Below are positions 8,233 through 29,861 of a stretch of DNA of 64,000 bases, piece by piece. The stretch is taken from the NCBI GenBank assembly GCA_016193485.1, contig JACPRZ010000043.1:96944-160943 (forward strand). The letters are read 5' to 3'. Under the pieces are notes generated by a model that searched no databases, was not told where the DNA came from, and saw only the letters and a program-made list of their open reading frames with translations. Numbering within the stretch: the stretch's first letter is position 1; every line of letters starts with the position of its first letter. This stretch comes from Bacteroidota bacterium (GTDB taxonomy: Bacteria; Bacteroidota; Bacteroidia; JACPRZ01). Position numbers and translations under genes: made by a program.

Positions 8233-9288
8233 TTATTCCCGGTAAATAAAAACCTTTGCCTGACCATCGGTATTGATATAACCACGGTACATTCCATCCG
8301 AATTAAAAGGCATTGCAATGTTTCCGTTTTTATCAACTGCAATGAGTCCGCCTTCACCGCCCATTTTTTTCAATTTAATGTTAATAATATCCCCTGATGC
8401 CGATCCGAGAGAGGCGCCTGAATATTCCATTCTTGCGGAGACATCATAAGCGGTCACCGTGCGGATGAAATATTCCCCATGGCCGGTGCATGATACAGCG
8501 CACGTTTTATTGTTGGCGTAAGTTCCTGCTCCGATAATCGGGGAGTCACCTACCCGGCCGAATTTTTTATTGGTCATGCCACCGGTTGAAGTTCCCGCTG
8601 CAAGGTTACCGTATTTATCGAGGGCGACAGCCCCGACAGTTCCGAATTTTTTCATTTTGAATTCCATGTCAAAATTTTCCTGTATTGAACCTGAAGTATC
8701 GTCAGCGTGGTCGAGAGCCGGCTTCTCATGTTTTTTTATTTCCTGCAGTTGCCGGTAGCGGATCTCATCGTAAAAATAAGAGGTATCGACAAGTTCAATT
8801 CCATGTTCACGCGCAAATGCCTCGGCACCGCGGCCGACCATCATCACATGAGGCGACTTTTCCATTACCGCCCTTGCAGCCGTGATCGGGTTTTTAATAA
8901 TCCTGACGCTAGCCACCGCTCCGGCATTCAGTGTTTTGCCGTCCATTATTGCGGCATCCATTTCGTTTTTTCCGTCAGCCGTGAAAACCGATCCTTTGCC
9001 TGCGTTGAAAAGCGGGGAGTCCTCCATCACCCGGATTGCCGCTTCAACAGCATCCATGCCTGTGCCGCCTTTTTTCAGAATGGAATACCCTGCCATCAGC
9101 GCCTCGGTCATTTTATCCTTGTACGCTTTTTCTTTTTCAGGGGTCATGTTTTTTTTCAGGATTGTACCTGCTCCGCCATGAATTACCAATACAATTGTGT
9201 CCATCTTACCTTGATTTGATGTTGGTTGTCCCGAAATTTGAGAAAAGAATACAAATGCGAGGGGGATTAAAAACACCAGAGATTTCAT
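8233..9288 (-). CDS. iaaA: isoaspartyl peptidase / L-asparaginase (Ntn-hydrolase, plant-type asparaginase family), secreted
   Basis: Signal peptide; VIHGGAG; autoprocessing-site motif GTVGAVALD; GHGEYFIR. Confidence 0.85.
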   Translation of the reverse strand: MKSLVFLIPLAFVFFSQISGQPTSNQGKMDTIVLVIHGGAGTILKKNMTPEKEKAYKDKMTEALMAGYSILKKGGTGMDAVEAAIRVMEDSPLFNAGKGSVFTADGKNEMDAAIMDGKTLNAGAVASVRIIKNPITAARAVMEKSPHVMMVGRGAEAFAREHGIELVDTSYFYDEIRYRQLQEIKKHEKPALDHADDTSGSIQENFDMEFKMKKFGTVGAVALDKYGNLAAGTSTGGMTNKKFGRVGDSPIIGAGTYANNKTCAVSCTGHGEYFIRTVTAYDVSARMEYSGASLGSASGDIINIKLKKMGGEGGLIAVDKNGNIAMPFNSDGMYRGYINTDGQAKVFIYRE

Positions 9289-9340
9289 CCATAGGGTTTG
9301 AAACGCAAACGTAAGTAAAATTCAATTATACAGGAATATT

Positions 9341-9389
9341 ATACTAACGCTGAATGATTATGCACAATCATTCAGGTCAGCATATAGTG
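9341..9389. repeat. palindromic hairpin ctgaatgatt-atgcac-aatcattcag (simple form of the 1251-1342 element)
   Basis: Shares the outer inverted repeat and the gtcag(c/t)atatagt tail with the element at 1251-1342; lies downstream of recO. Confidence 0.6.
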
Positions 9390-9417
9390 ATGAATTTGAT
9401 TTTGCATACTTGCAAAA

Positions 9418-10140
9418 TCAAATTCCGTCAGTATACATCAATTCCAGTGACCGGATGCGGTGCATCCCCGGAAGATGTATGCGATAGTAAAGAACCAGTT
9501 TGCCGAGAAGTTCTTTTGCCATATCCGGGAAGATCATTTCTTTTGTCGGAGAATCAGATGTTTTCCCGATAACAGAGGACAAAATGCGTGATAATGGAGG
9601 ATGAATGAAATCGGGATGGCCGGCAAATGGTGTAAATTTTCCGTTACGCAGATCAAAATATTCCGAATGGGTGGAAAAATTATTCTGAGGAAAAAATCCA
9701 AGGTAACGGGAGAGTTGAATCAGGAATAAAAGGCAGAAATCACACGTAATTATTGGCGCATCATCCAACTGGTGTGTTGTCTGAACAAGGAATCCGAACA
9801 AATCCGGATTGGCCTCTTCTTCCTTTACTGCCCGCAGTATTGTTTCGGCAATAAAAAATGCAGCGCTTCTCTTATCAGGATCAAATGGAATGGAATGGAA
9901 TGGCTTTTCCGCCTCCGCTTCTTTAATCCGTTGGACATCCCTTGTCGGGCGGTGATAAACTTCCATTTTCATCAGCGACAGAGGGCGGGTTAAATAATTT
10001 CTCAATGGCTTTTTGGTTCCCTTCAATCCCTGAGAAATATATGATACCAGTCCGAAATTTTCAGTATAAATTTTAACGATAATGGCTGAATCGGAGTAGG
10101 GAATATGATGAAGGACGATGCCGCGGGTTTTGGTTAACAT
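9418..10140 (-). CDS. recO: DNA repair protein RecO
   Basis: N-terminus MLTKTRGIVLHHIPYSDSAIIVKIYTE is the typical RecO OB-fold start; length 240 aa. Confidence 0.8.
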   Translation of the reverse strand: MLTKTRGIVLHHIPYSDSAIIVKIYTENFGLVSYISQGLKGTKKPLRNYLTRPLSLMKMEVYHRPTRDVQRIKEAEAEKPFHSIPFDPDKRSAAFFIAETILRAVKEEEANPDLFGFLVQTTHQLDDAPIITCDFCLLFLIQLSRYLGFFPQNNFSTHSEYFDLRNGKFTPFAGHPDFIHPPLSRILSSVIGKTSDSPTKEMIFPDMAKELLGKLVLYYRIHLPGMHRIRSLELMYTDGI

Positions 10141-22539: not shown

Positions 22540-23954
22540 TTTCCGAATGAAAAGCGGTTTAGCTCACGTAAATAATCATCTTTTGAAATTTCTTTTCGGT
22601 TTTTAAAATAATTTTCAGCGCCCCACAGGTACGATGCTTTTTGCAGGGTATCCCTGCGGGTCGGAAAATAGATCACGGTAGTATTAACGGTTACGAGTAT
22701 TTCTTTTTTTTCGGTCTGGACCATGCGTGGAATATATTCGTATTTCGGGAATTTTGTCGCTGCAGTGGGTTTGTATATTTTTTTTTCAGAAGGATTTTTT
22801 TGGGCGGATTCCGTTTTTGCGAGACGTTCATTTTCGGCAGCCATCACCATCAGCGATCTCATCTGTCCTGAATAAATCTGCCTCCGGGTATCAGAAACAA
22901 TTTCTGCATTGCGGGATTTCATGGCATTAGTGCCGGCAATATTTTTTGTTTCGGTATCTTTTTTCATCAAATCTTCAGCGCTCTTCGCTTCGGCCGCCTT
23001 GCGCATTTCGGCAAGCCGCGCCAGTTTTTCTTTATCCGCAAGTTCTGTAGTTCCGGGTGAGATGCCGGTCAGTTTTTTCTCATCTTCGGTCTTGATTTTT
23101 TTATTGGTTCCGGCTTCCAAAGTTCTGGCTTCTTCTTCCCTTGCCTGCCGTTCTAATTCCGATTTCATAGCTTCATCGCGTTTTTTCTGCTCTTCGGTAA
23201 TGCTGGCGGCAAGCAGCCGGTCTATTTCTCCTATTTTTTCAAGAGCGTAGGTTTCATCCGGTTTTACGGCATGCGCCTGCAGATAATATGCTTTTGCATT
23301 TGCATAGTCCTCCTGCTTAAAATGAGCATCGCCTTTCGCTATCGCTTCCTTATATTTGGCTTCTGTTTCGGCTTTCTTTTTTTCTTCTTCCATCTTTTTC
23401 TTCCGGTAATCGGCAATCAGTTTGTACCGTTCATCGGCTTCGGCCCTGAGTATGGCGAAGAGCGCTTCAACGCGCGCACGTATGGAATTAAAGTAGGCCT
23501 TATCATCATAAAAATCCCTGCGTTCGGGATTATAGGAGAAACGTGAGACCGGTTTCTCAAGAATTGAGGTGAGGTCTTTATCGAGACCGGGAACCATCTC
23601 AAAAAGTTCTATGGTTGGAATATAAGTGGGATAATGAACCCCATAGTCGGGCGGGACTCTTGCAGATACATAGTGCCTGAGCGTGACGTGCCCGTATTTG
23701 GAAAGTTCAATAATATATTCATCATCTTTGACGGTAAGCGGAAGTTCTTTGAATGTGAACTTGCCGTTGTTTTGGGTAATTTCTGTGGTAATTTTAGTTC
23801 CGTTTTTATAAAGAACGGCAGTCACCCCCGGGAGGGTTTTGCCATGAAGAACCACCGTTCCTTTGATGGTCATGTATCCGAGGTCCTGCGCGTAAGCCGT
23901 TTGGAAGAGAAAAATAAAGAAGGGAATGAATAATATGCGGCAGAAAAGTTTCAT
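22536..23954 (-). CDS. secreted protein with CarboxypepD_reg-like N-terminal domain and Lys/Glu-rich coiled-coil region
   Basis: Signal peptide; IKGTVVLHGKTLPGVTAVLYKNGTK (carboxypeptidase regulatory-like beta-sandwich); long EEKKKAE-rich helix; start overlaps the stop of the upstream phosphatase. Confidence 0.55.
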   Translation of the reverse strand: MKLFCRILFIPFFIFLFQTAYAQDLGYMTIKGTVVLHGKTLPGVTAVLYKNGTKITTEITQNNGKFTFKELPLTVKDDEYIIELSKYGHVTLRHYVSARVPPDYGVHYPTYIPTIELFEMVPGLDKDLTSILEKPVSRFSYNPERRDFYDDKAYFNSIRARVEALFAILRAEADERYKLIADYRKKKMEEEKKKAETEAKYKEAIAKGDAHFKQEDYANAKAYYLQAHAVKPDETYALEKIGEIDRLLAASITEEQKKRDEAMKSELERQAREEEARTLEAGTNKKIKTEDEKKLTGISPGTTELADKEKLARLAEMRKAAEAKSAEDLMKKDTETKNIAGTNAMKSRNAEIVSDTRRQIYSGQMRSLMVMAAENERLAKTESAQKNPSEKKIYKPTAATKFPKYEYIPRMVQTEKKEILVTVNTTVIYFPTRRDTLQKASYLWGAENYFKNRKEISKDDYLRELNRFSFGK

Positions 23955-24010
23955 TGAATAGCGAAATTACGAAAATATAGGGCAGTCGGGCACAGAAGAG
24001 GGCGGAATGG

Positions 24011-24166
24011 CCTGCCTGCCGGCAGGCAAGGGCTACATTCCCATTGATCAGGTGTGAATTTTTTTGTTTTCCTGATCTGATGAAGTCCGATACTAGTCCT
24101 GACGTTTACGATCAGGATGCAGACATTTATCGTCTGCATCAGATTCATCGGACCGGCAGGCAGGGA
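24011..24166. repeat. complex palindromic region (cctgcctgccggcaggcaagg; nested insert with gatgcagacatttatcgtctgcatc; tail tcatcggaccggcaggcaggga)
   Basis: Shares gtccgatact(a/c)gtc and tcatcggaccgg(c/t)aggcaggga with 37746-37806, and the gacatttatcgtc core with 1298-1314. Confidence 0.6.
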
Positions 24167-24224
24167 TAAATGATTGCCTATGCTGCTGGAAAAAATACAA
24201 ATGTGATTACAAATGTGTTGGGGT

Positions 24225-26465
24225 TTAACCGATAATTTTCTGCACCAGATTGTCTATGTTTTTCAATTCAGATGCAAGATTGTTTTTAATGGCAACCCGC
24301 AATAGACCTAAGTAAATTGCAGTTAGTTCTTTTTGCGGTGGGTTGTTCTTTAAATATTTTGCCGTTTTGTCGTGTGCCTCTTTGCTAAGTTTTGCCAAAC
24401 GCAAATGTGTTTCATTTTCTTTGTCAAACTTTGGGTAATACATGTCAAGAATTTTTTTATGAACATCTCTTGCACCGAATAAACCTTTTGTCTGGAAATC
24501 TTTCATTAAAAGGTTTGGGGAAGTTGCATTGAGAATAGCAGTCAGATAATATGCTTCGTTTGAACTGTTGGTAACAAATGAATATCCTTTGCTTTCAACA
24601 ATAAATTCCAAATCAAAGTCCTTTCTTTTTACTACAGTTGCGTTTGCATTTTTTGCAGAAGAATTGTAGATCACTAAATAAGGCGCGTTAATATGTTGTT
24701 CAGTTAATCCTCTTTGAAAATCAAGACGGTCATTGCTTGACATGTTTTTTGATTTTGCAGTTTTTTGCAAATCCCAAATTCTTTCAGCATTTTTAAACCA
24801 TTTTGAAGCATGTAAATATCCTTCGCTTCTTAATTCATCTGCCAAGTAGATTTTGATTTCCTTTTTATTTTCATTTTGATTATATTCAACGGTAATAGGA
24901 AGAACAACTAAATCGGGTTTGAATAACGCAAAAGGTAAAATACTTTTTGATAGTGCGGTGCGGAAAAGAAAACGGCTTTCAATTTGACCAGTGAAATCAA
25001 GTCCCTTCCAAGGTTTTTTTGCGACTGCCTGAATGGAATCAGAAGTTTTTATGTTAATAATTCTACCTTCCCAATCAGGCGGATATTCTTGTGTGAGTTG
25101 AATAAAATAAAATGTGCGCGGGACAATAGTAGCGCCTTGTTTGAATAATTTTTTATATGGATTTATGTTGGTTTGTTTCTTTGATTTACGCGGTGAAAAT
25201 GCTGATGACTTTCCCTGTTTTACATAAAACCAATTTTCACTTTTTTCAACAAGATTCGGCATTGCTGATTTAAGATTGCAATTGTGTGAAGGTACATTTC
25301 CACTGAAGCTTATTCCACCGATACCGGTAGCAGGCAATGATTTTTTCCCGTTTGTTTTTTCAGCAAATAAGACACCGCTCGGAATACGGAATAAAGGGGC
25401 GACTTTATTTAAATCCCAAATATTTGTAAGGCGAAATCCTTTTGCTTTTCCGCTTCTCGTATTATCGTGATGGTCTGCGCTGAAAAAACTACGCGGTAAA
25501 ACAAAAGCAATTTTCCCGCTATCATTTAAAAAATAATTGGCACAATGGGATAAAAATATTGCGGCAATTTCAAGGTGCGGGAAGTTTGCTTTTTTGTCGG
25601 GTTTTACAAGATAGATTTCAGCAAGTTTATTTAGTATGTTCTGATATTCTTCGTTCCTGATTGAACTGTATGTGAACCAGGGAGGATTGCCTATGATGTA
25701 ATCAAATTTTCCATGCAAAAAATAGGGTTTGTAAATATTTTGCAAAATGAATTTCCAAATGCTGTCTCTGCCTTTTTCTTTTACAGATTTCAAGCCAAGA
25801 TATATTTTGTAAAATCCATTTGTAATATTGCCATTAAATCCGTTCTTCGGGAATTTTTTACATAAAATATTTTCAAAAGTTTTTTCATCTTCGGCTTTGG
25901 TATGCAATGTTTGATCTGCCAATTCTTCGCACAATTCCAAACCCTCATCAAATAATTCAATTTCTTCCAACACTTGTGTATTGAGTAAAAATACTTCTTT
26001 GTCAATTTTTAATTTGAATTCGCTGCCGAATAAACTTCCAACTCCATCGGGGGCTAATAGCGTGTTTGCAAGGATAATATTTATGTGAATAGGTTTTTTA
26101 GATTTTACAATTTCTTTTCCCAATGAAAGAAGCATTGTTGTTTTTGCAATCTGTACGGAAAGGGGATGAATGTCTATTCCGAAAATATGTTCATTGAGTT
26201 GTTCGGCAGAAGTCCCCGGATGATTTTTTTTTATCCGGTGAATGGCAGCGCGGAGAAACGAACCGCTTCCGCAAGCAGGGTCAAGGATTTTGTCAGTGGG
26301 TTTAAAATTGAATTCTTTTACAATTCTTTCGCATAACCAGTCGGGCGTATAATACTCGCCTAATGCGTGGCGCGTGTCCAAATCAATTAATTCCTGGTAA
26401 CCAGAAGAAAAAATCGTTGTCAACAAAATTGCGGATGTTGTATTTATGAAAAACAGTGCCGTCAA
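24225..26465 (-). CDS. N6-adenine DNA methyltransferase domain plus putative target-recognition region of a Type IIG (MmeI-like) restriction-modification enzyme; C-terminal part of a split gene
   Basis: SAM-binding motif ILDPACGSGSFL and catalytic motif YIIGNPPWFTYS (gamma-class N6-adenine MTase); about 450 aa C-terminal extension; overlaps the upstream ORF by 83 bp in another frame. Confidence 0.75.
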   Translation of the reverse strand: MTALFFINTTSAILLTTIFSSGYQELIDLDTRHALGEYYTPDWLCERIVKEFNFKPTDKILDPACGSGSFLRAAIHRIKKNHPGTSAEQLNEHIFGIDIHPLSVQIAKTTMLLSLGKEIVKSKKPIHINIILANTLLAPDGVGSLFGSEFKLKIDKEVFLLNTQVLEEIELFDEGLELCEELADQTLHTKAEDEKTFENILCKKFPKNGFNGNITNGFYKIYLGLKSVKEKGRDSIWKFILQNIYKPYFLHGKFDYIIGNPPWFTYSSIRNEEYQNILNKLAEIYLVKPDKKANFPHLEIAAIFLSHCANYFLNDSGKIAFVLPRSFFSADHHDNTRSGKAKGFRLTNIWDLNKVAPLFRIPSGVLFAEKTNGKKSLPATGIGGISFSGNVPSHNCNLKSAMPNLVEKSENWFYVKQGKSSAFSPRKSKKQTNINPYKKLFKQGATIVPRTFYFIQLTQEYPPDWEGRIINIKTSDSIQAVAKKPWKGLDFTGQIESRFLFRTALSKSILPFALFKPDLVVLPITVEYNQNENKKEIKIYLADELRSEGYLHASKWFKNAERIWDLQKTAKSKNMSSNDRLDFQRGLTEQHINAPYLVIYNSSAKNANATVVKRKDFDLEFIVESKGYSFVTNSSNEAYYLTAILNATSPNLLMKDFQTKGLFGARDVHKKILDMYYPKFDKENETHLRLAKLSKEAHDKTAKYLKNNPPQKELTAIYLGLLRVAIKNNLASELKNIDNLVQKIIG

Positions 26466-27288
26466 TGATTCCTTTCATTTCGTCATCGCTAATATAATCA
26501 TCATTGCTGACCACCGTATATGCCAACATTTTTGAAAAGACAGAAAGATAGGTATGAATAAGAAAATTATTTTCGCTTGCGTCATAAGAACCGTAAGCAA
26601 TGCTCAAAAACTTTTCCCATTGCGCATAAGAAACCTGAATCTCACCGTATTTTTTTACATCCCGGAAATGGTTTGACATTTCACGATAACAATCAATGAA
26701 AATACCGCTTTGATAGCCGAATGATTCTTCAATTCTCTTGAGGGTCGCTTTTTGTTTTTCTTCTTTGAAAAGAAATCTGTCAATCCAGAAATAAAAATCG
26801 TCTGCGTTATTTTCTGACAGGGTGAAAGAAGCAGAGGCGATTTCGTTCAATTTTAATTTATCTTCCGTGAGTTCTTCCAGTATATCAATTTGTGAAATGT
26901 CGGGAGCAAAAACTTTCCAATTGATAAAGTCGGAAGCAATTAGGGTGTAGTTGTAACCTTCGCCTGAATTAACCTGGCCTAAAAGATAACCCGCCAGTTG
27001 TTCTTTGGCGTGTTTCAAAGTAAATTTCAGGTCGTTTTCAAATTCAATAATGATTTTATTATAAAGGGTGTCGGCACTACCCTTGTGCATTTTGTCCTTT
27101 CGGGGAATATTCAGGACCGTTTTTTCAGCACCGCTTGTAATTTTGTCAATTATTTTTTTTATCTCTTCTTCACCGGAATATAATCGGTTGAGCAGGTCTT
27201 TGAATAATTCTTTTTTGGCGAGTTCTTTATTGGCAGTTTTTATCTTTTGCCGGTATATTTCAATCAGTTCGTTTCTGTTTTGGTCCAT
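26383..27288 (-). CDS. N-terminal (nuclease-like) domain of the Type IIG-like enzyme, separated from the methyltransferase domain by a frameshift
   Basis: 301-aa ORF ending inside the start of 24225-26465; its tail ...NDFFFWLPGIN* joins the downstream frame ...SGYQELID by a 1-nt shift near a T6 run. Confidence 0.55.
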   Translation of the reverse strand: MDQNRNELIEIYRQKIKTANKELAKKELFKDLLNRLYSGEEEIKKIIDKITSGAEKTVLNIPRKDKMHKGSADTLYNKIIIEFENDLKFTLKHAKEQLAGYLLGQVNSGEGYNYTLIASDFINWKVFAPDISQIDILEELTEDKLKLNEIASASFTLSENNADDFYFWIDRFLFKEEKQKATLKRIEESFGYQSGIFIDCYREMSNHFRDVKKYGEIQVSYAQWEKFLSIAYGSYDASENNFLIHTYLSVFSKMLAYTVVSNDDYISDDEMKGIIDGTVFHKYNIRNFVDNDFFFWLPGIN

Positions 27289-27365
27289 TGTAAATTATCT
27301 CTTTAAAACATTGTAAAAATACCATTTATTCCTGTTTGGCGGTTGCGGGCGTAACTGCCGATGAT

Positions 27366-27446
27366 CTGGAGGGAGGTGACATTGAGGGATTTGATGTAGG
27401 GGATTGAGGGGATGAGGGAATGAGGAATTAATAACATGAGGGAATT
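27366..27446. promoter_or_regulatory. purine-rich tgaggga-type short repeats upstream of the Type IIG-like gene
   Basis: ggagggagg, ttgagggat, ttgagggga, atgagggaa, tgaggaatt, atgagggaat within 80 bp; a similar ttgagggagg and G-rich tract recurs at 29680-29840. Confidence 0.35.
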
Positions 27447-27565
27447 AAAGGATCAGAAGGGAACAAGAAAAGATATTTATTGGCATAGAGTTGGTAATTT
27501 TCGTTATGGAAAAAGAAAAGGGATAGTGGAGGATTACGATACAAAGAAAGATTAGGTAAATGGCT

Positions 27566-28282
27566 TTAGTTTGTTAACGTGTGAATCAACAATCTTGCTT
27601 CCGGAATTTCTTTATAGACATTATTAATATTATCTTCGGTTAAATATGTATTAATTGTTTTGAATAACTTACCACTTCTAAATGCTTCAGGAATGGATTC
27701 AGTATCATACACCTTTTTTTTTAATTGAGGGGTTGGGTGCAAATATCTAATATTCTCTTTTGAAATATCAAATATGCAGGATGCGACAAGTATTTCTGAA
27801 CTTGGGAATAATATTAGTGGAATGAAATATGGCAATATTTCGTAATTATAACCTTGTTTAACCATTTCTTCGTAGAATTTTTCAATTGAAAAATAAATTA
27901 ATCTATTAATACTATAAGCCCATTCAGTGAAGTAATTTGAGCGGTCTTTCAGAAGTTTTTCCGTATCAGAATTGATAATTATTATTTCTTTATTTGAAAT
28001 TGCAGAATTTACCCTTAAAGTTTTTTGGTAACAAGCATAATAAATAGCAATCAAATCTTTTAATAATTTATTGGAATCATCAGAAGTAAATGAGTAATTG
28101 GATGAATTTGAAGTGTTATGCAGATATCTTGATAAAGAATTAAAAATATTCAATTGATCCAGGTCAATAAAGCAATTATCGGGTAATTCCTCCTTCCGGT
28201 GTTTTTTAAAAATGGATTGTAAAAATTTTCGGATAACATAAAAGTCACTTAGCCCGTCACGAAGTATTGCAATATTTCGCAT
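27566..28282 (-). CDS. small partner protein of the upstream ATPase; possible RloB/TOPRIM-like effector (unassigned)
   Basis: Start 3 nt after the ATPase stop; N-terminus MRNIAILRDGLSDFYV (hydrophobic strand then D-G-x-S-D) resembles the start of RloB/DUF4276-type partners; later IIIINSDTEKLL acidic patch; AT-rich. Confidence 0.5.
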   Translation of the reverse strand: MRNIAILRDGLSDFYVIRKFLQSIFKKHRKEELPDNCFIDLDQLNIFNSLSRYLHNTSNSSNYSFTSDDSNKLLKDLIAIYYACYQKTLRVNSAISNKEIIIINSDTEKLLKDRSNYFTEWAYSINRLIYFSIEKFYEEMVKQGYNYEILPYFIPLILFPSSEILVASCIFDISKENIRYLHPTPQLKKKVYDTESIPEAFRSGKLFKTINTYLTEDNINNVYKEIPEARLLIHTLTN

Positions 28283-28285
28283 AAA

Positions 28286-29581
28286 TTAAATTTCACCTAA
28301 AACACCATTATAGAAAAGTTCAACTAAATCGAATGGTTTAATAGCAATTATTTTTTTATTATTCACTGTAATTTCCTCACCCTCAACAGTACCCATATTG
28401 ACAAGGGGTTTAATTGCGTCATTTAAGTTTGTAACAAGTGTAATAAAATCTTTTTCTTTCAAATGGAAATTATAAACGGAATCGGGCCGTTGTGAGAATT
28501 CCCGAATTACGGATGGGCTGTGGCTGGTAAAAATAAACTGTGTTTTTTTTGAATTATCAGATGTATCTCTTAACCAATTAAGAAATTCATGAAGATTTTT
28601 TTGATTTATACCATTTTCTATTTCTTCAATCATAATCAATGCGGGAGGTTTGCGAATAGAGCAAAGGAGGGCAATTGCTGCAGCTCTAACTAACCCATCA
28701 GATATTTTATCAGGGTCATAGTAAGGGAAGTTTGAACCACCCATATCAAATTGCCATTTTAAACCATTTTCCTTTAAAACGAAGTTATTGAAATTTTTAA
28801 CGAACCTTTTAAGGTAACCAATAAATCGACTAAAAGTTTCTTGATCCTGCTCTTTAATAAAACAGAGTAATTCCAGAAGGTTTCCCCCTTCCTTACCGAT
28901 TGCGCTTGGTGGATATGGAAAGACATTATTTGTTTTAAAATTACCTAAAAAATCTTTTTTATAACTCGGTACTAGTTTACCTCTAATATAGGAGCCGGAA
29001 AATGCATCTCCTTTTAAAAAGGACGGTTGAAAATTATAATAATAAAAAGTTGCAAGATCGTGGAAAAATAAATTAACTATTTCTTTTTCCCGGAAATGGT
29101 TATTAGATTCATATATTTTTTTTCTTAAAAGTAATTTGGAAGAATTTATATCAAAGCCATTTTCAAATGTTATGTTATTATCAGGAAATAAAAGGGTTAA
29201 TTTCTCGGTGCTTAAAATTAAGCGATCATCTTTTATATTAGGAAAAATTGAGAGGTTATATTCTATATTGTAATTATCTTTACTCCATATGCATCGAAAA
29301 CTAATTGGTTCACCAATTTTGCACATTGAATGTTTATTTGAATTGTATTCGTATGAACGAAGGTCAGAGAAATAATATTCATCTTGACTTTCATGATCAG
29401 TTTCATGAATTGGTTCTTTAACAGGATTATATCGACTTATCAATCTAGAAAAAAAATGCAGACCCCTAAGGAAATTACTTTTACCAGAGTTATTAGAGCC
29501 GATAATTAAAGACAAATCAATGGGTTCAATGGCAGTACATTTATGGGTTCTGTAATTTTTTAGTTCTAATAATTTAAACAT
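28286..29581 (-). CDS. ABC-type (AAA_15/AAA_21, OLD/SMC-like) ATPase, defence-associated family
   Basis: Walker A LIIGSNNSGKSN near N-terminus; D-loop/Walker B ALIMIEEIENGI; H-loop FIFTSHSP; 431 aa; AT-rich. Confidence 0.75.
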   Translation of the reverse strand: MFKLLELKNYRTHKCTAIEPIDLSLIIGSNNSGKSNFLRGLHFFSRLISRYNPVKEPIHETDHESQDEYYFSDLRSYEYNSNKHSMCKIGEPISFRCIWSKDNYNIEYNLSIFPNIKDDRLILSTEKLTLLFPDNNITFENGFDINSSKLLLRKKIYESNNHFREKEIVNLFFHDLATFYYYNFQPSFLKGDAFSGSYIRGKLVPSYKKDFLGNFKTNNVFPYPPSAIGKEGGNLLELLCFIKEQDQETFSRFIGYLKRFVKNFNNFVLKENGLKWQFDMGGSNFPYYDPDKISDGLVRAAAIALLCSIRKPPALIMIEEIENGINQKNLHEFLNWLRDTSDNSKKTQFIFTSHSPSVIREFSQRPDSVYNFHLKEKDFITLVTNLNDAIKPLVNMGTVEGEEITVNNKKIIAIKPFDLVELFYNGVLGEI

Positions 29582-29861
29582 AAGAATAATATTGAGCAGT
29601 TGTTAATTTGGCGGATTTGCAAGTTTTTTTTCGAACCATTAGCGAGCAACAAAGGTAGAAATTCTTCGGGAATGATAAGGTAGTCTTCGGGATTGGGAAT
29701 GTGAAATATTTTTGATGTTGATGTTTAGTCCTGGTCGGGACCGTTGAGGGAGGCAGCCCACCCTGCCCCTTCAAAGGGGGGGGAAGTCGCGAAGGGATGG
29801 AGATAGGCGGGTGAGGTTTGTCGGGTGGAAACACACGATTGCACAAGGGAAGCATTATTCT

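Follow-up and report, generated by a model that had tools for sequence, protein, structure and literature searches.

A Type IIG-like restriction-modification gene of a Bacteroidota bacterium, probably inactivated by a 110-bp internal deletion

The sequence analysed here, hereafter the window, is a 64,000-nucleotide stretch of contig JACPRZ010000043.1 from the genome assembly of a Bacteroidota bacterium (GCA_016193485.1). Two ORFs on its minus strand, the N-ORF and the C-ORF, overlap by 83 nt in frames that differ by +1, and an earlier note on this DNA had given their coordinates, overlap and one-nucleotide offset correctly. The pair is listed in public records as a "hypothetical protein" (MBI2968037.1) and a "SAM-dependent DNA methyltransferase" (MBI2968036.1), the latter being the NCBI entry for the C-ORF product at 733 aa. 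The features of the locus are as follows.

26383-27288, minus strand: N-ORF, 301 aa; 5' remnant of a Type IIG-like gene
27037-27072, minus strand: nuclease motif D73-X8-E82-F-E84, DTLYNKIIIEFE, with Glu at the canonical Lys position
24225-26465, minus strand: C-ORF as called mechanically, 746 aa; its upstream limit is a TTG at 26465
26449-26453, minus strand: T5 run, of the same length as in the closest intact homologue (L001)
26408-26413, minus strand: T6 run, GATTTTTTC, encoding D-F-F; not the lesion
26400-26401, minus strand: deletion junction, blunt, TTCTTCTGG followed by TTACCAGG (TGG/TTACC)
24225-26400, minus strand: 3' remnant in the +1 frame; remainder of the gamma-class N6-adenine methyltransferase, followed by the putative target-recognition region and the C-terminal helices
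26343-26354, minus strand: YYTP, in the methyltransferase domain of the C-ORF
26262-26282, minus strand: DPACGSG (motif I), in the C-ORF upstream of motif IV
25677-25688, minus strand: NPPW (motif IV), in the C-ORF downstream of motif I

The two ORFs are the halves of one ordinary stand-alone Type IIG-like restriction-modification gene. Both fall on a single PADLOC Type IIG profile with their order kept, the N-ORF on positions 25-315 (E 2.4e-7) and the C-ORF on positions 356-712 (E 2.5e-61), a match that lies far beyond chance and that bears out the relatedness on which the earlier note had made its reading depend. Homologues number >2000, and the full-length ones span both halves at 60-80% identity; those of 1053-1067 aa align to 99-100% of the spliced query at 65-80% identity. 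Residues 1-296 of the N-ORF are genuine and form a PD-(D/E)XK nuclease domain with a helical connector; its final five codons (LPGIN, then a stop) are out-of-frame read-through beyond the deletion junction. The C-ORF matches the Pfam families N6_Mtase (E 4.5e-19), Eco57I (E 1.1e-16) and MmeI_Mtase (E 7.7e-8). An N-terminal PD-(D/E)XK endonuclease domain and a gamma-class N6-adenine methyltransferase are therefore both present in the one polypeptide, as in Type IIG enzymes, and the proposed arrangement of nuclease, gamma-class methyltransferase and putative C-terminal recognition region agrees with the profile, homologue and fold matches.

The nuclease motif lies where it had previously been placed and its Lys is indeed replaced by Glu, however, the replacement is not specific to this copy. 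Among 67 diverse family members D73, E82 and D120 are invariant and E55 is nearly so, while the third motif position is E in all close homologues examined and K, alternating with E, in many distant members. Since all close homologues examined share Glu and distant ones carry E-X-K, the exchange is a trait of the clade and not a lesion. A first full-length model had pLDDT <50 over the catalytic strands, which a more diverse alignment resolved, and the N-domain is predicted to have a fold (pLDDT 92) most like that of two Type IIG enzymes, BpuSI and DrdV. The label "restriction enzyme" is applied to this clade as a prediction from sequence and structural models.

What separates the two frames is a 110-base internal deletion and not slippage in a T-run. 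Aligned at the DNA level with its closest intact homologue, the window is 110 nt shorter with T6 unchanged, and protein alignment to homologues places a 37-residue gap precisely at the ORF switch. The 37 conserved residues concerned, located between DNDFFxW and YQELIDLD, are present in intact relatives and absent from the window. The deletion starts 7 nt downstream of T6, at the boundary of the helical connector and the methyltransferase domain, moves the frame by +1 and costs 37 codons, 13 of them family-invariant, from a segment that aligns with the N-terminal part of HsdM-type methyltransferase domains. The missing 110 nt run from ATAAAAAATGAG to AAAAGGCGT and encode IKNERSFKALKNVFRFIAQEISTFDFHNVDEDILKGV; the string that spans the junction in the deletion allele is TTCTTCTGGTTACCAGG, and in the intact allele the left flank TTCTTCTGG continues as ATAAAAAATG. 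Comparison of the window with an intact allele (L084, described below) revealed no microhomology or repeat at the junction. All 75 traceable homologue loci hold one continuous ORF (4 reach a contig end and the rest measure 1054-1077 aa), and the 37-aa spacing is kept in each of the 52 loci where it was measurable. Beyond the deletion the window departs from 1 of 258 family-invariant positions, where intact homologues do so at 1.6 positions on average and at 5 at most.

The earlier note had traced the frame change to a one-nucleotide shift near T6 or T5 and had offered a pseudogene, a phase-variable switch or a sequencing error as explanations. On the second or third of these, a change at the T-runs would toggle a functional 1020-aa enzyme. 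The arithmetic behind this is sound: removal of one T from T6 does join both frames as a single ORF of 1020 aa, close to the ~1020 aa that had been estimated. However, both T-runs have the lengths found in the closest intact homologue, and T6 keeps its length in the intact allele L084 too, so that a simple homopolymer sequencing error is excluded. The fused 1020-aa product would still lack the 37 residues common to intact relatives, including the 13 invariant ones. The alleles do not differ in the length of a simple-sequence tract, they differ by a 110-nt non-repeat deletion, and with neither repeat nor microhomology present slippage could not revert the change, which excludes a phase-variable switch. 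T6 also falls far short of the tracts that toggle restriction-modification genes known to be phase-variable, the poly-G tract of C. jejuni cj0031 being an example. We regard a switch or error at these runs as very nearly incredible. Programmed frameshifting and transcriptional slippage were likewise rejected, as the intact allele requires neither and a fused product would miss conserved residues.

An intact form of the gene is found in a Logan contig (L084) from an independent single-run assembly (SRR12113431). It is 100% identical to window positions 29749-26401 and 26400-25901 and retains the 110 nt that the window lacks; joined to the rest of the window it yields a single 1057-aa ORF, the one continuous reading frame that is broken in the window copy. 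The account that we consider probable is that a stand-alone Type IIG-type gene, of 1057 aa when intact, was inactivated by a blunt 110-bp internal deletion, making the window copy an irreversible loss-of-function allele. A less likely reading, doubtful but deserving of consideration, is that the organism has only the intact 1057-aa gene and that the gap was introduced when the MAG was assembled, scaffolded or automatically error-corrected. Only one assembly, the NCBI MAG, documents the deletion allele, the sole other contig across the site is the intact and otherwise 100% identical L084, and the gene is otherwise free of decay, all of which would suit an artefact. Nevertheless, de Bruijn assemblers seldom make a new blunt junction unless a repeat of k-mer length or longer is available, and the site has none, so the k-mers of the junction should occur in the reads. 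Disrupted copies of this family are also common and real elsewhere, with one split allele recorded on 18 contigs. A metagenome scan with the 40-nt left flank returned only the contig of a homologue (P0001) and did not meet the window locus again, and exact-product look-ups with the 733-aa C-ORF product and the downstream 472-aa protein returned no record. A homologue search with the 499-aa fragment of the intact allele brought up no additional 100%-identical fragment apart from the N-ORF of the MAG itself. Another Logan contig (L085) stops 21 nt short of the junction; a graph branch was considered as the cause, and the contig was set aside as uninformative, as a branch would stop at the junction.

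If the deletion is real, the 3' fragment could still serve as an orphan adenine methyltransferase that has lost its nuclease and kept methylation. No damage or decay is seen in motif I, motif IV, the YYTP region or any part of the recognition region, and NCBI annotates the product as a methyltransferase of 733 aa. However, the 13 invariant residues are gone from the N-terminal helices of the methyltransferase domain, and Pfam N6_Mtase coverage begins at profile position 24 vs position 4 in an intact homologue. TTG alone is available as a start codon upstream of motif I in this frame, the first ATG coming after the motif, and a recent deletion accounts equally well for the missing decay. A functional orphan methyltransferase is thus a poor prospect in our judgement. 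Under the preferred account of inactivation by deletion, the intact protein would carry, in order, a PD-(D/E)XK nuclease (D-X8-E-X-E), a helical connector, a gamma-class N6-adenine methyltransferase, and a target-recognition region with C-terminal helices. If it works like BpuSI, DrdV, MmeI and Eco57I, its C-terminal region would bind an asymmetric site, an adenine of the bound site would be methylated using AdoMet, and the N-terminal nuclease would swing round to cleave DNA that lacks the modification, at a fixed distance. The deletion would leave a 301-aa nuclease/connector fragment devoid of the DNA-recognition part, plus a downstream frame in which no ATG precedes the AdoMet-binding motif.

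The gene displays no other decay, and a sister assembly contains an intact allele that is otherwise identical; the deletion therefore appears to be of very recent origin, and it most likely segregates within a natural population as an allele locked irreversibly "off". Across genomes of Bacteroidota, Ignavibacteriota, Acidobacteriota and Desulfobacterota, the wider clade shares 60-80% identity along the full length of the protein. Other members are also split, one into three fragments (368 + 502 + 155 aa, on 18 contigs) and another into two (622 + 423 aa, on a 6.4-Mb contig). Naturally disrupted genes of the MmeI family, namely NmeAIII, DraRI and ApyPI, have been verified as real (PMC2731913). 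A scenario in which deleted and intact alleles coexist in one groundwater population as an irreversible on/off polymorphism, the clade is a highly mobile Type IIG of single specificity that cuts via a BamHI-like D…E-X-E active site in place of E-X-K, and the 733-746-aa remnant might retain methylation as an orphan enzyme is improbable.

The neighbourhood holds no conserved partner. Clusters of flanking ORFs from 81 loci reach at most 4 loci, and the adjacent ATPase and 238-aa genes, considered as parts of the same system, were rejected as both are missing from 82/82 related loci. Direct repeats flanking a low-GC island (24045 and 30101; 77% over 30 nt) were dismissed as chance and lie partly inside a housekeeping gene. 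There are no tRNA genes in the window, and a sigma-70 promoter and terminator scan, a method ill-suited to Bacteroidota, performed no better than on shuffled sequence.

The importance of the locus is chiefly one of annotation. MBI2968037.1 and MBI2968036.1 together represent a single broken restriction-modification gene, one half each, and hence neither methylation nor restriction via this locus should be predicted for the strain. An apparent one-nucleotide frameshift beside a homopolymer can conceal a larger in-gene deletion, for which length relative to intact relatives is the decisive check. Of modest interest are the intact and deleted alleles in otherwise identical sequence, the repeated splitting of family genes in other genomes, and a large uncharacterised Type IIG clade with Glu replacing the catalytic Lys.

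Compared with known systems, the window gene shares its stand-alone character with the MmeI family (Type IIL), whose members are fusion genes that lack both a companion methyltransferase and conserved neighbours (PMC2731913). The nuclease motif also occupies the same place, D-X8/9-E-X-(K/E), and in both families natural copies are often disrupted and otherwise undecayed. The likeness does not extend over the whole length, however. Pfam MmeI_Mtase scores 32 bits vs a cut-off of 27, whereas MmeI_N, MmeI_hel, MmeI_TRD and MmeI_C are unmatched by the window protein; among 44 distant relatives, MmeI_N is found in 3/44 and MmeI_hel, MmeI_TRD and MmeI_C in 0. MmeI has 919 aa, so the intact window protein is ~140 aa longer. 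The MmeI nuclease motif is D70-X9-E80-X-K82 with Lys invariant in the family (Morgan et al., 2009, PMC2731913), and Lys82 corresponds to Glu in the window protein, where the motif reads D-X8-E-F-E. Because the methyltransferase domain alone matches MmeI, the gene is Type IIG-like and no strict member of the MmeI family. The earlier designation as MmeI-like consequently holds for the methyltransferase domain, and fails for the N-terminal, helical, recognition and C-terminal families.

The same note had also proposed an alignment of the spliced protein to PglX. The closest full-length Foldseek match of a homologue model is the BREX methyltransferase PglX/BrxX (9ewz, 8c45, E ~3e-13), whose methyltransferase and recognition architecture is similar. 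However, NCBIfam PglX models score 25-29 bits vs cut-offs of 400-900. BREX partner genes (brxA/B/C, pglZ, brxL) were found near the gene neither in the window nor in the 81 loci, and PglX lacks the conserved nuclease motif of the window family. The methylase domain of Eco57I-type Type IIG enzymes (PF07669) is matched at E 1e-16 and was found in all 44 family members tested, but Eco57I requires a separate companion methyltransferase (PMC2731913) and the window family has no such gene at 81 loci. TRD Pfam families matched neither the window protein nor the 44 distant relatives, and a PDB sequence search gave no match outside the methyltransferase core. The full-length homologue model (pLDDT 73, moderate) matches BrxX/PglX, CamA, M.BseCI, DrdV and LlaBIII by Foldseek, covering ~760 columns of CamA and M.BseCI (TM ~0.53 on target) and aligning along its whole length to PglX and DrdV. 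The structurally characterised Type IIG enzymes BpuSI (PDB 3S1S) and DrdV (PDB 7LO5) are only ~10% identical in sequence to the window protein, and the third catalytic residue of the window clade is Glu and not Lys. Overall, the case is an ordinary one.

The earlier note proposed that two overlapping open reading frames (ORFs) form one broken Type IIG restriction-modification gene, and the overlapping frames, the quoted motifs and the T6 and T5 runs were all found in the window.

Features of the disrupted Type IIG gene (window positions)
26383-27288, reverse strand: N-terminal ORF (N-ORF), 301 aa, ATG start
24225-26465, reverse strand: C-terminal ORF (C-ORF), 746 aa counted from a TTG
27037-27072, reverse strand: nuclease motif DTLYNKIIIEFE, in the N-ORF
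26449-26453, reverse strand: T5 run
26408-26413, reverse strand: T6 run
26343-26354, reverse strand: YYTP
26262-26282, reverse strand: DPACGSG (motif I)
25677-25688, reverse strand: NPPW

The ORFs overlap by 83 nt, with the C-ORF in the +1 frame relative to the N-ORF. Their assignment to one gene is borne out by a single PADLOC profile, REase_MTase_IIG (PDLC03630, 1100 positions), matched in order by the N-ORF (positions 25-315, E 2.4e-7) and the C-ORF (positions 356-712, E 2.5e-61). In Pfam, the C-ORF matches N6_Mtase, Eco57I and MmeI_Mtase, and a search with the N-ORF gave no match. Public annotation holds two separate genes, MBI2968037.1 and MBI2968036.1, which should be annotated as a single disrupted gene.

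The cause of the disruption is a 110-nt deletion and not, as had been suggested, a 1-nt frameshift near the T6 and T5 runs. The spliced 1020-aa query has >2000 homologues, and the full-length proteins among the best 120 (1049-1101 aa, mostly 1053-1067; 65-80% identity across 99-100% of the query) consistently exceed it by about 37 residues. All the missing residues form one block in the protein alignment, located exactly at the frame switch, with the consensus IKxERSFxxLKKVFRLIAQEISxFDFxxVDEDILKGV flanked by DNDFFxW and YQELIDLD. The closest intact homologue (P0001, locus L001) carries 110 additional nt between …TTCTATTGG and TTATCAGG…, and its GATTTTTTC and T5 runs equal the window's in length. 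Among 82 related loci, 75 were traceable and the gene is one continuous ORF in every one of these (1054-1077 aa, apart from four in which it reaches the contig end), the 37-residue spacing being kept in 52 of 52 measurable loci. The window junction falls between 26401 and 26400, 7 nt 3' of the T6 run, and no microhomology was found there. The 238-aa protein encoded next to the gene is also present on four Logan single-run contigs, one of which (L084, run SRR12113431) spans the site. This contig matches the window with 100% identity over both 29749-26401 and 26400-25901, and between the two stretches has 110 nt (ATAAAAAATGAG…AAAAGGCGT) translating to IKNERSFKALKNVFRFIAQEISTFDFHNVDEDILKGV; joined to the remaining window it gives a single 1057-aa ORF. 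The T6 run is identical in this intact allele, and a hypothetical slip from T6 to T5, while joining the two frames, would yield a 1020-aa protein still without the 37 residues; we therefore reject both phase variation and homopolymer error.

In the window, the first frame reaches a stop five codons past the junction, leaving a nuclease/connector fragment without the DNA-recognition part, and the downstream frame has only TTG codons ahead of motif I, its first ATG following DPACGSG. The deleted segment contains 13 family-invariant residues and aligned, in a PDB sequence search, to the N-terminal helices of the HsdM-type methyltransferase domain. Outside the deletion the copy is undecayed, with 1 of 258 family-invariant positions changed, as expected of an intact homologue (mean 1.6, maximum 5); the deletion thus either happened very recently or is an artefact. 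We consider it probable that the deletion is a real allele. An error of metagenome assembly or curation would fit the record of the deletion in the MAG only and the intact state of the sole independent contig across the site, L084, but is rather unlikely: a blunt, repeat-free junction would not be expected as the invention of a de Bruijn assembler, the same family is split in other genomes, and MmeI-family genes that are naturally disrupted yet undecayed have been verified by experiment (PMC2731913). Inactivation recurs in this Type IIG family.

Split family members in other genomes
L087/L088, 4001-7195: Ignavibacteria lineage, fragments of 368 + 502 + 155 aa, on 18 contigs
L089, 4001-7168: 6.4-Mb long-read contig, fragments of 622 + 423 aa

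No family recurs among the flanking genes of 81 loci (maximum 4 loci), nor does any companion methyltransferase, BREX or Type I partner; the gene is therefore a stand-alone, single-gene module. A small DUF559 gene (Vsr-like endonuclease fold) lies just downstream of it in 4 of 81 loci, with positions 9240-9647 in locus L050 and 7527-7919 in L087. The window clade (80 genome loci, L003-L082) shares 60-72% identity with the query along the full length of ~1055 aa, which takes in the recognition region. Its genomes are labeled Bacteroidota, Ignavibacteriota, Acidobacteriota, Desulfobacterota and Alphaproteobacteria, and the genomic context differs at each locus, a distribution suggesting that one specificity has spread widely by horizontal transfer.

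GC content is 29-37% in 24.0-29.6 kb vs 44-50% in both flanks, which points to a small acquired island. This stretch (about 24000-29600) holds the broken gene and an ATPase/238-aa pair, and has a 472-aa gene on one side and a DUF2723/TMEM260-like gene on the other; searches for a tRNA, an integrase and convincing flanking repeats found none at it.

Other features of the low-GC island
27566-29581, reverse strand: two-gene cassette, 431-aa AAA_15/AAA_21 (SMC_N-like) ATPase, then the 238-aa protein 3 nt later
29574-29855, reverse strand: 93-aa proline-rich ORF, island edge
23951-24148, reverse strand: 65-aa ORF, island edge

The two edge ORFs have no family matches and are probably not genes. Searches of Pfam, PHROGs, PADLOC, NCBIfam and PDB sequences gave nothing significant for the 238-aa protein. 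It has 32 homologues, also about 238 aa long and 40-59% identical, and in three genomic contexts unrelated to one another it again comes directly after a same-type ATPase of 410-431 aa. The ATPase resembles those of AriA, AbiLi, HEC-01A and MADS3. These upstream genes are absent from all related Type IIG loci and form a conserved pair of their own elsewhere. The pair is a unit separate from the Type IIG gene, and may represent a defence system of ATPase plus partner that has yet to be described.

The N-ORF model from a diverse alignment is confident (pLDDT 91.8, pTM 0.87) and comprises three helices, a four-stranded sheet, a helix, a beta-hairpin and a helical bundle. Its lower-ranked structural matches are many PD-(D/E)XK nucleases (NucC, PfoI, Cas4, HsdR, PspGI, Cfr10I), and Foldseek agreed weakly (DrdV, E 0.045). 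Among 1.8 billion representative proteins searched, the domain occurs in 585 clusters, and is the N-terminus of ~1050-1100-aa proteins in most full-length matches listed. Members with as little as about 25% identity still keep D73, E82 and D120 without exception, and E55 is nearly invariant. The third motif residue is Glu (EFE) in the window and every close homologue examined, but many distant members have Lys there (EFK or EVK); thus the motif is the classical MmeI-type D-Xn-E-X-K (D70, E80 and K82 in MmeI; PMC2731913) with a clade-wide K-to-E replacement. The suspected loss of the lysine is therefore present, as a trait of the close homologues and not a lesion of this copy. The clade's Glu motif resembles the active site of BamHI, formed by Asp94, Glu111 and Glu113.

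All 44 distant members match N6_Mtase and Eco57I, and 3 of the 44 reach Pfam MmeI_N (best E 6.6e-6). A PDB sequence search returned HsdM-type methyltransferases only, and a model of a full-length homologue (pLDDT 73) matches BrxX/PglX, CamA, M.BseCI, DrdV and LlaBIII; judged from this model, the matched module would be the methyltransferase and recognition unit common to Type IIG/IIL, Type ISP and BREX enzymes. The description "MmeI-like" holds for the methyltransferase domain, the only one matched, but the protein falls outside the strict MmeI family, whose catalytic Lys is replaced. It is not a PglX either, scoring 25-29 bits with NCBIfam PglX models vs cut-offs of 400-900. By its tested features, the locus is a broken copy of the broad Type IIG restriction-modification fusion class. 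In the intact enzyme, the C-terminal region would read an asymmetric site, the methyltransferase domain would methylate adenine and protect the host, and the nuclease at the N-terminus, carried on a helical arm, would cleave at a fixed distance where the DNA is unmodified, following the pattern of BpuSI, DrdV and MmeI.
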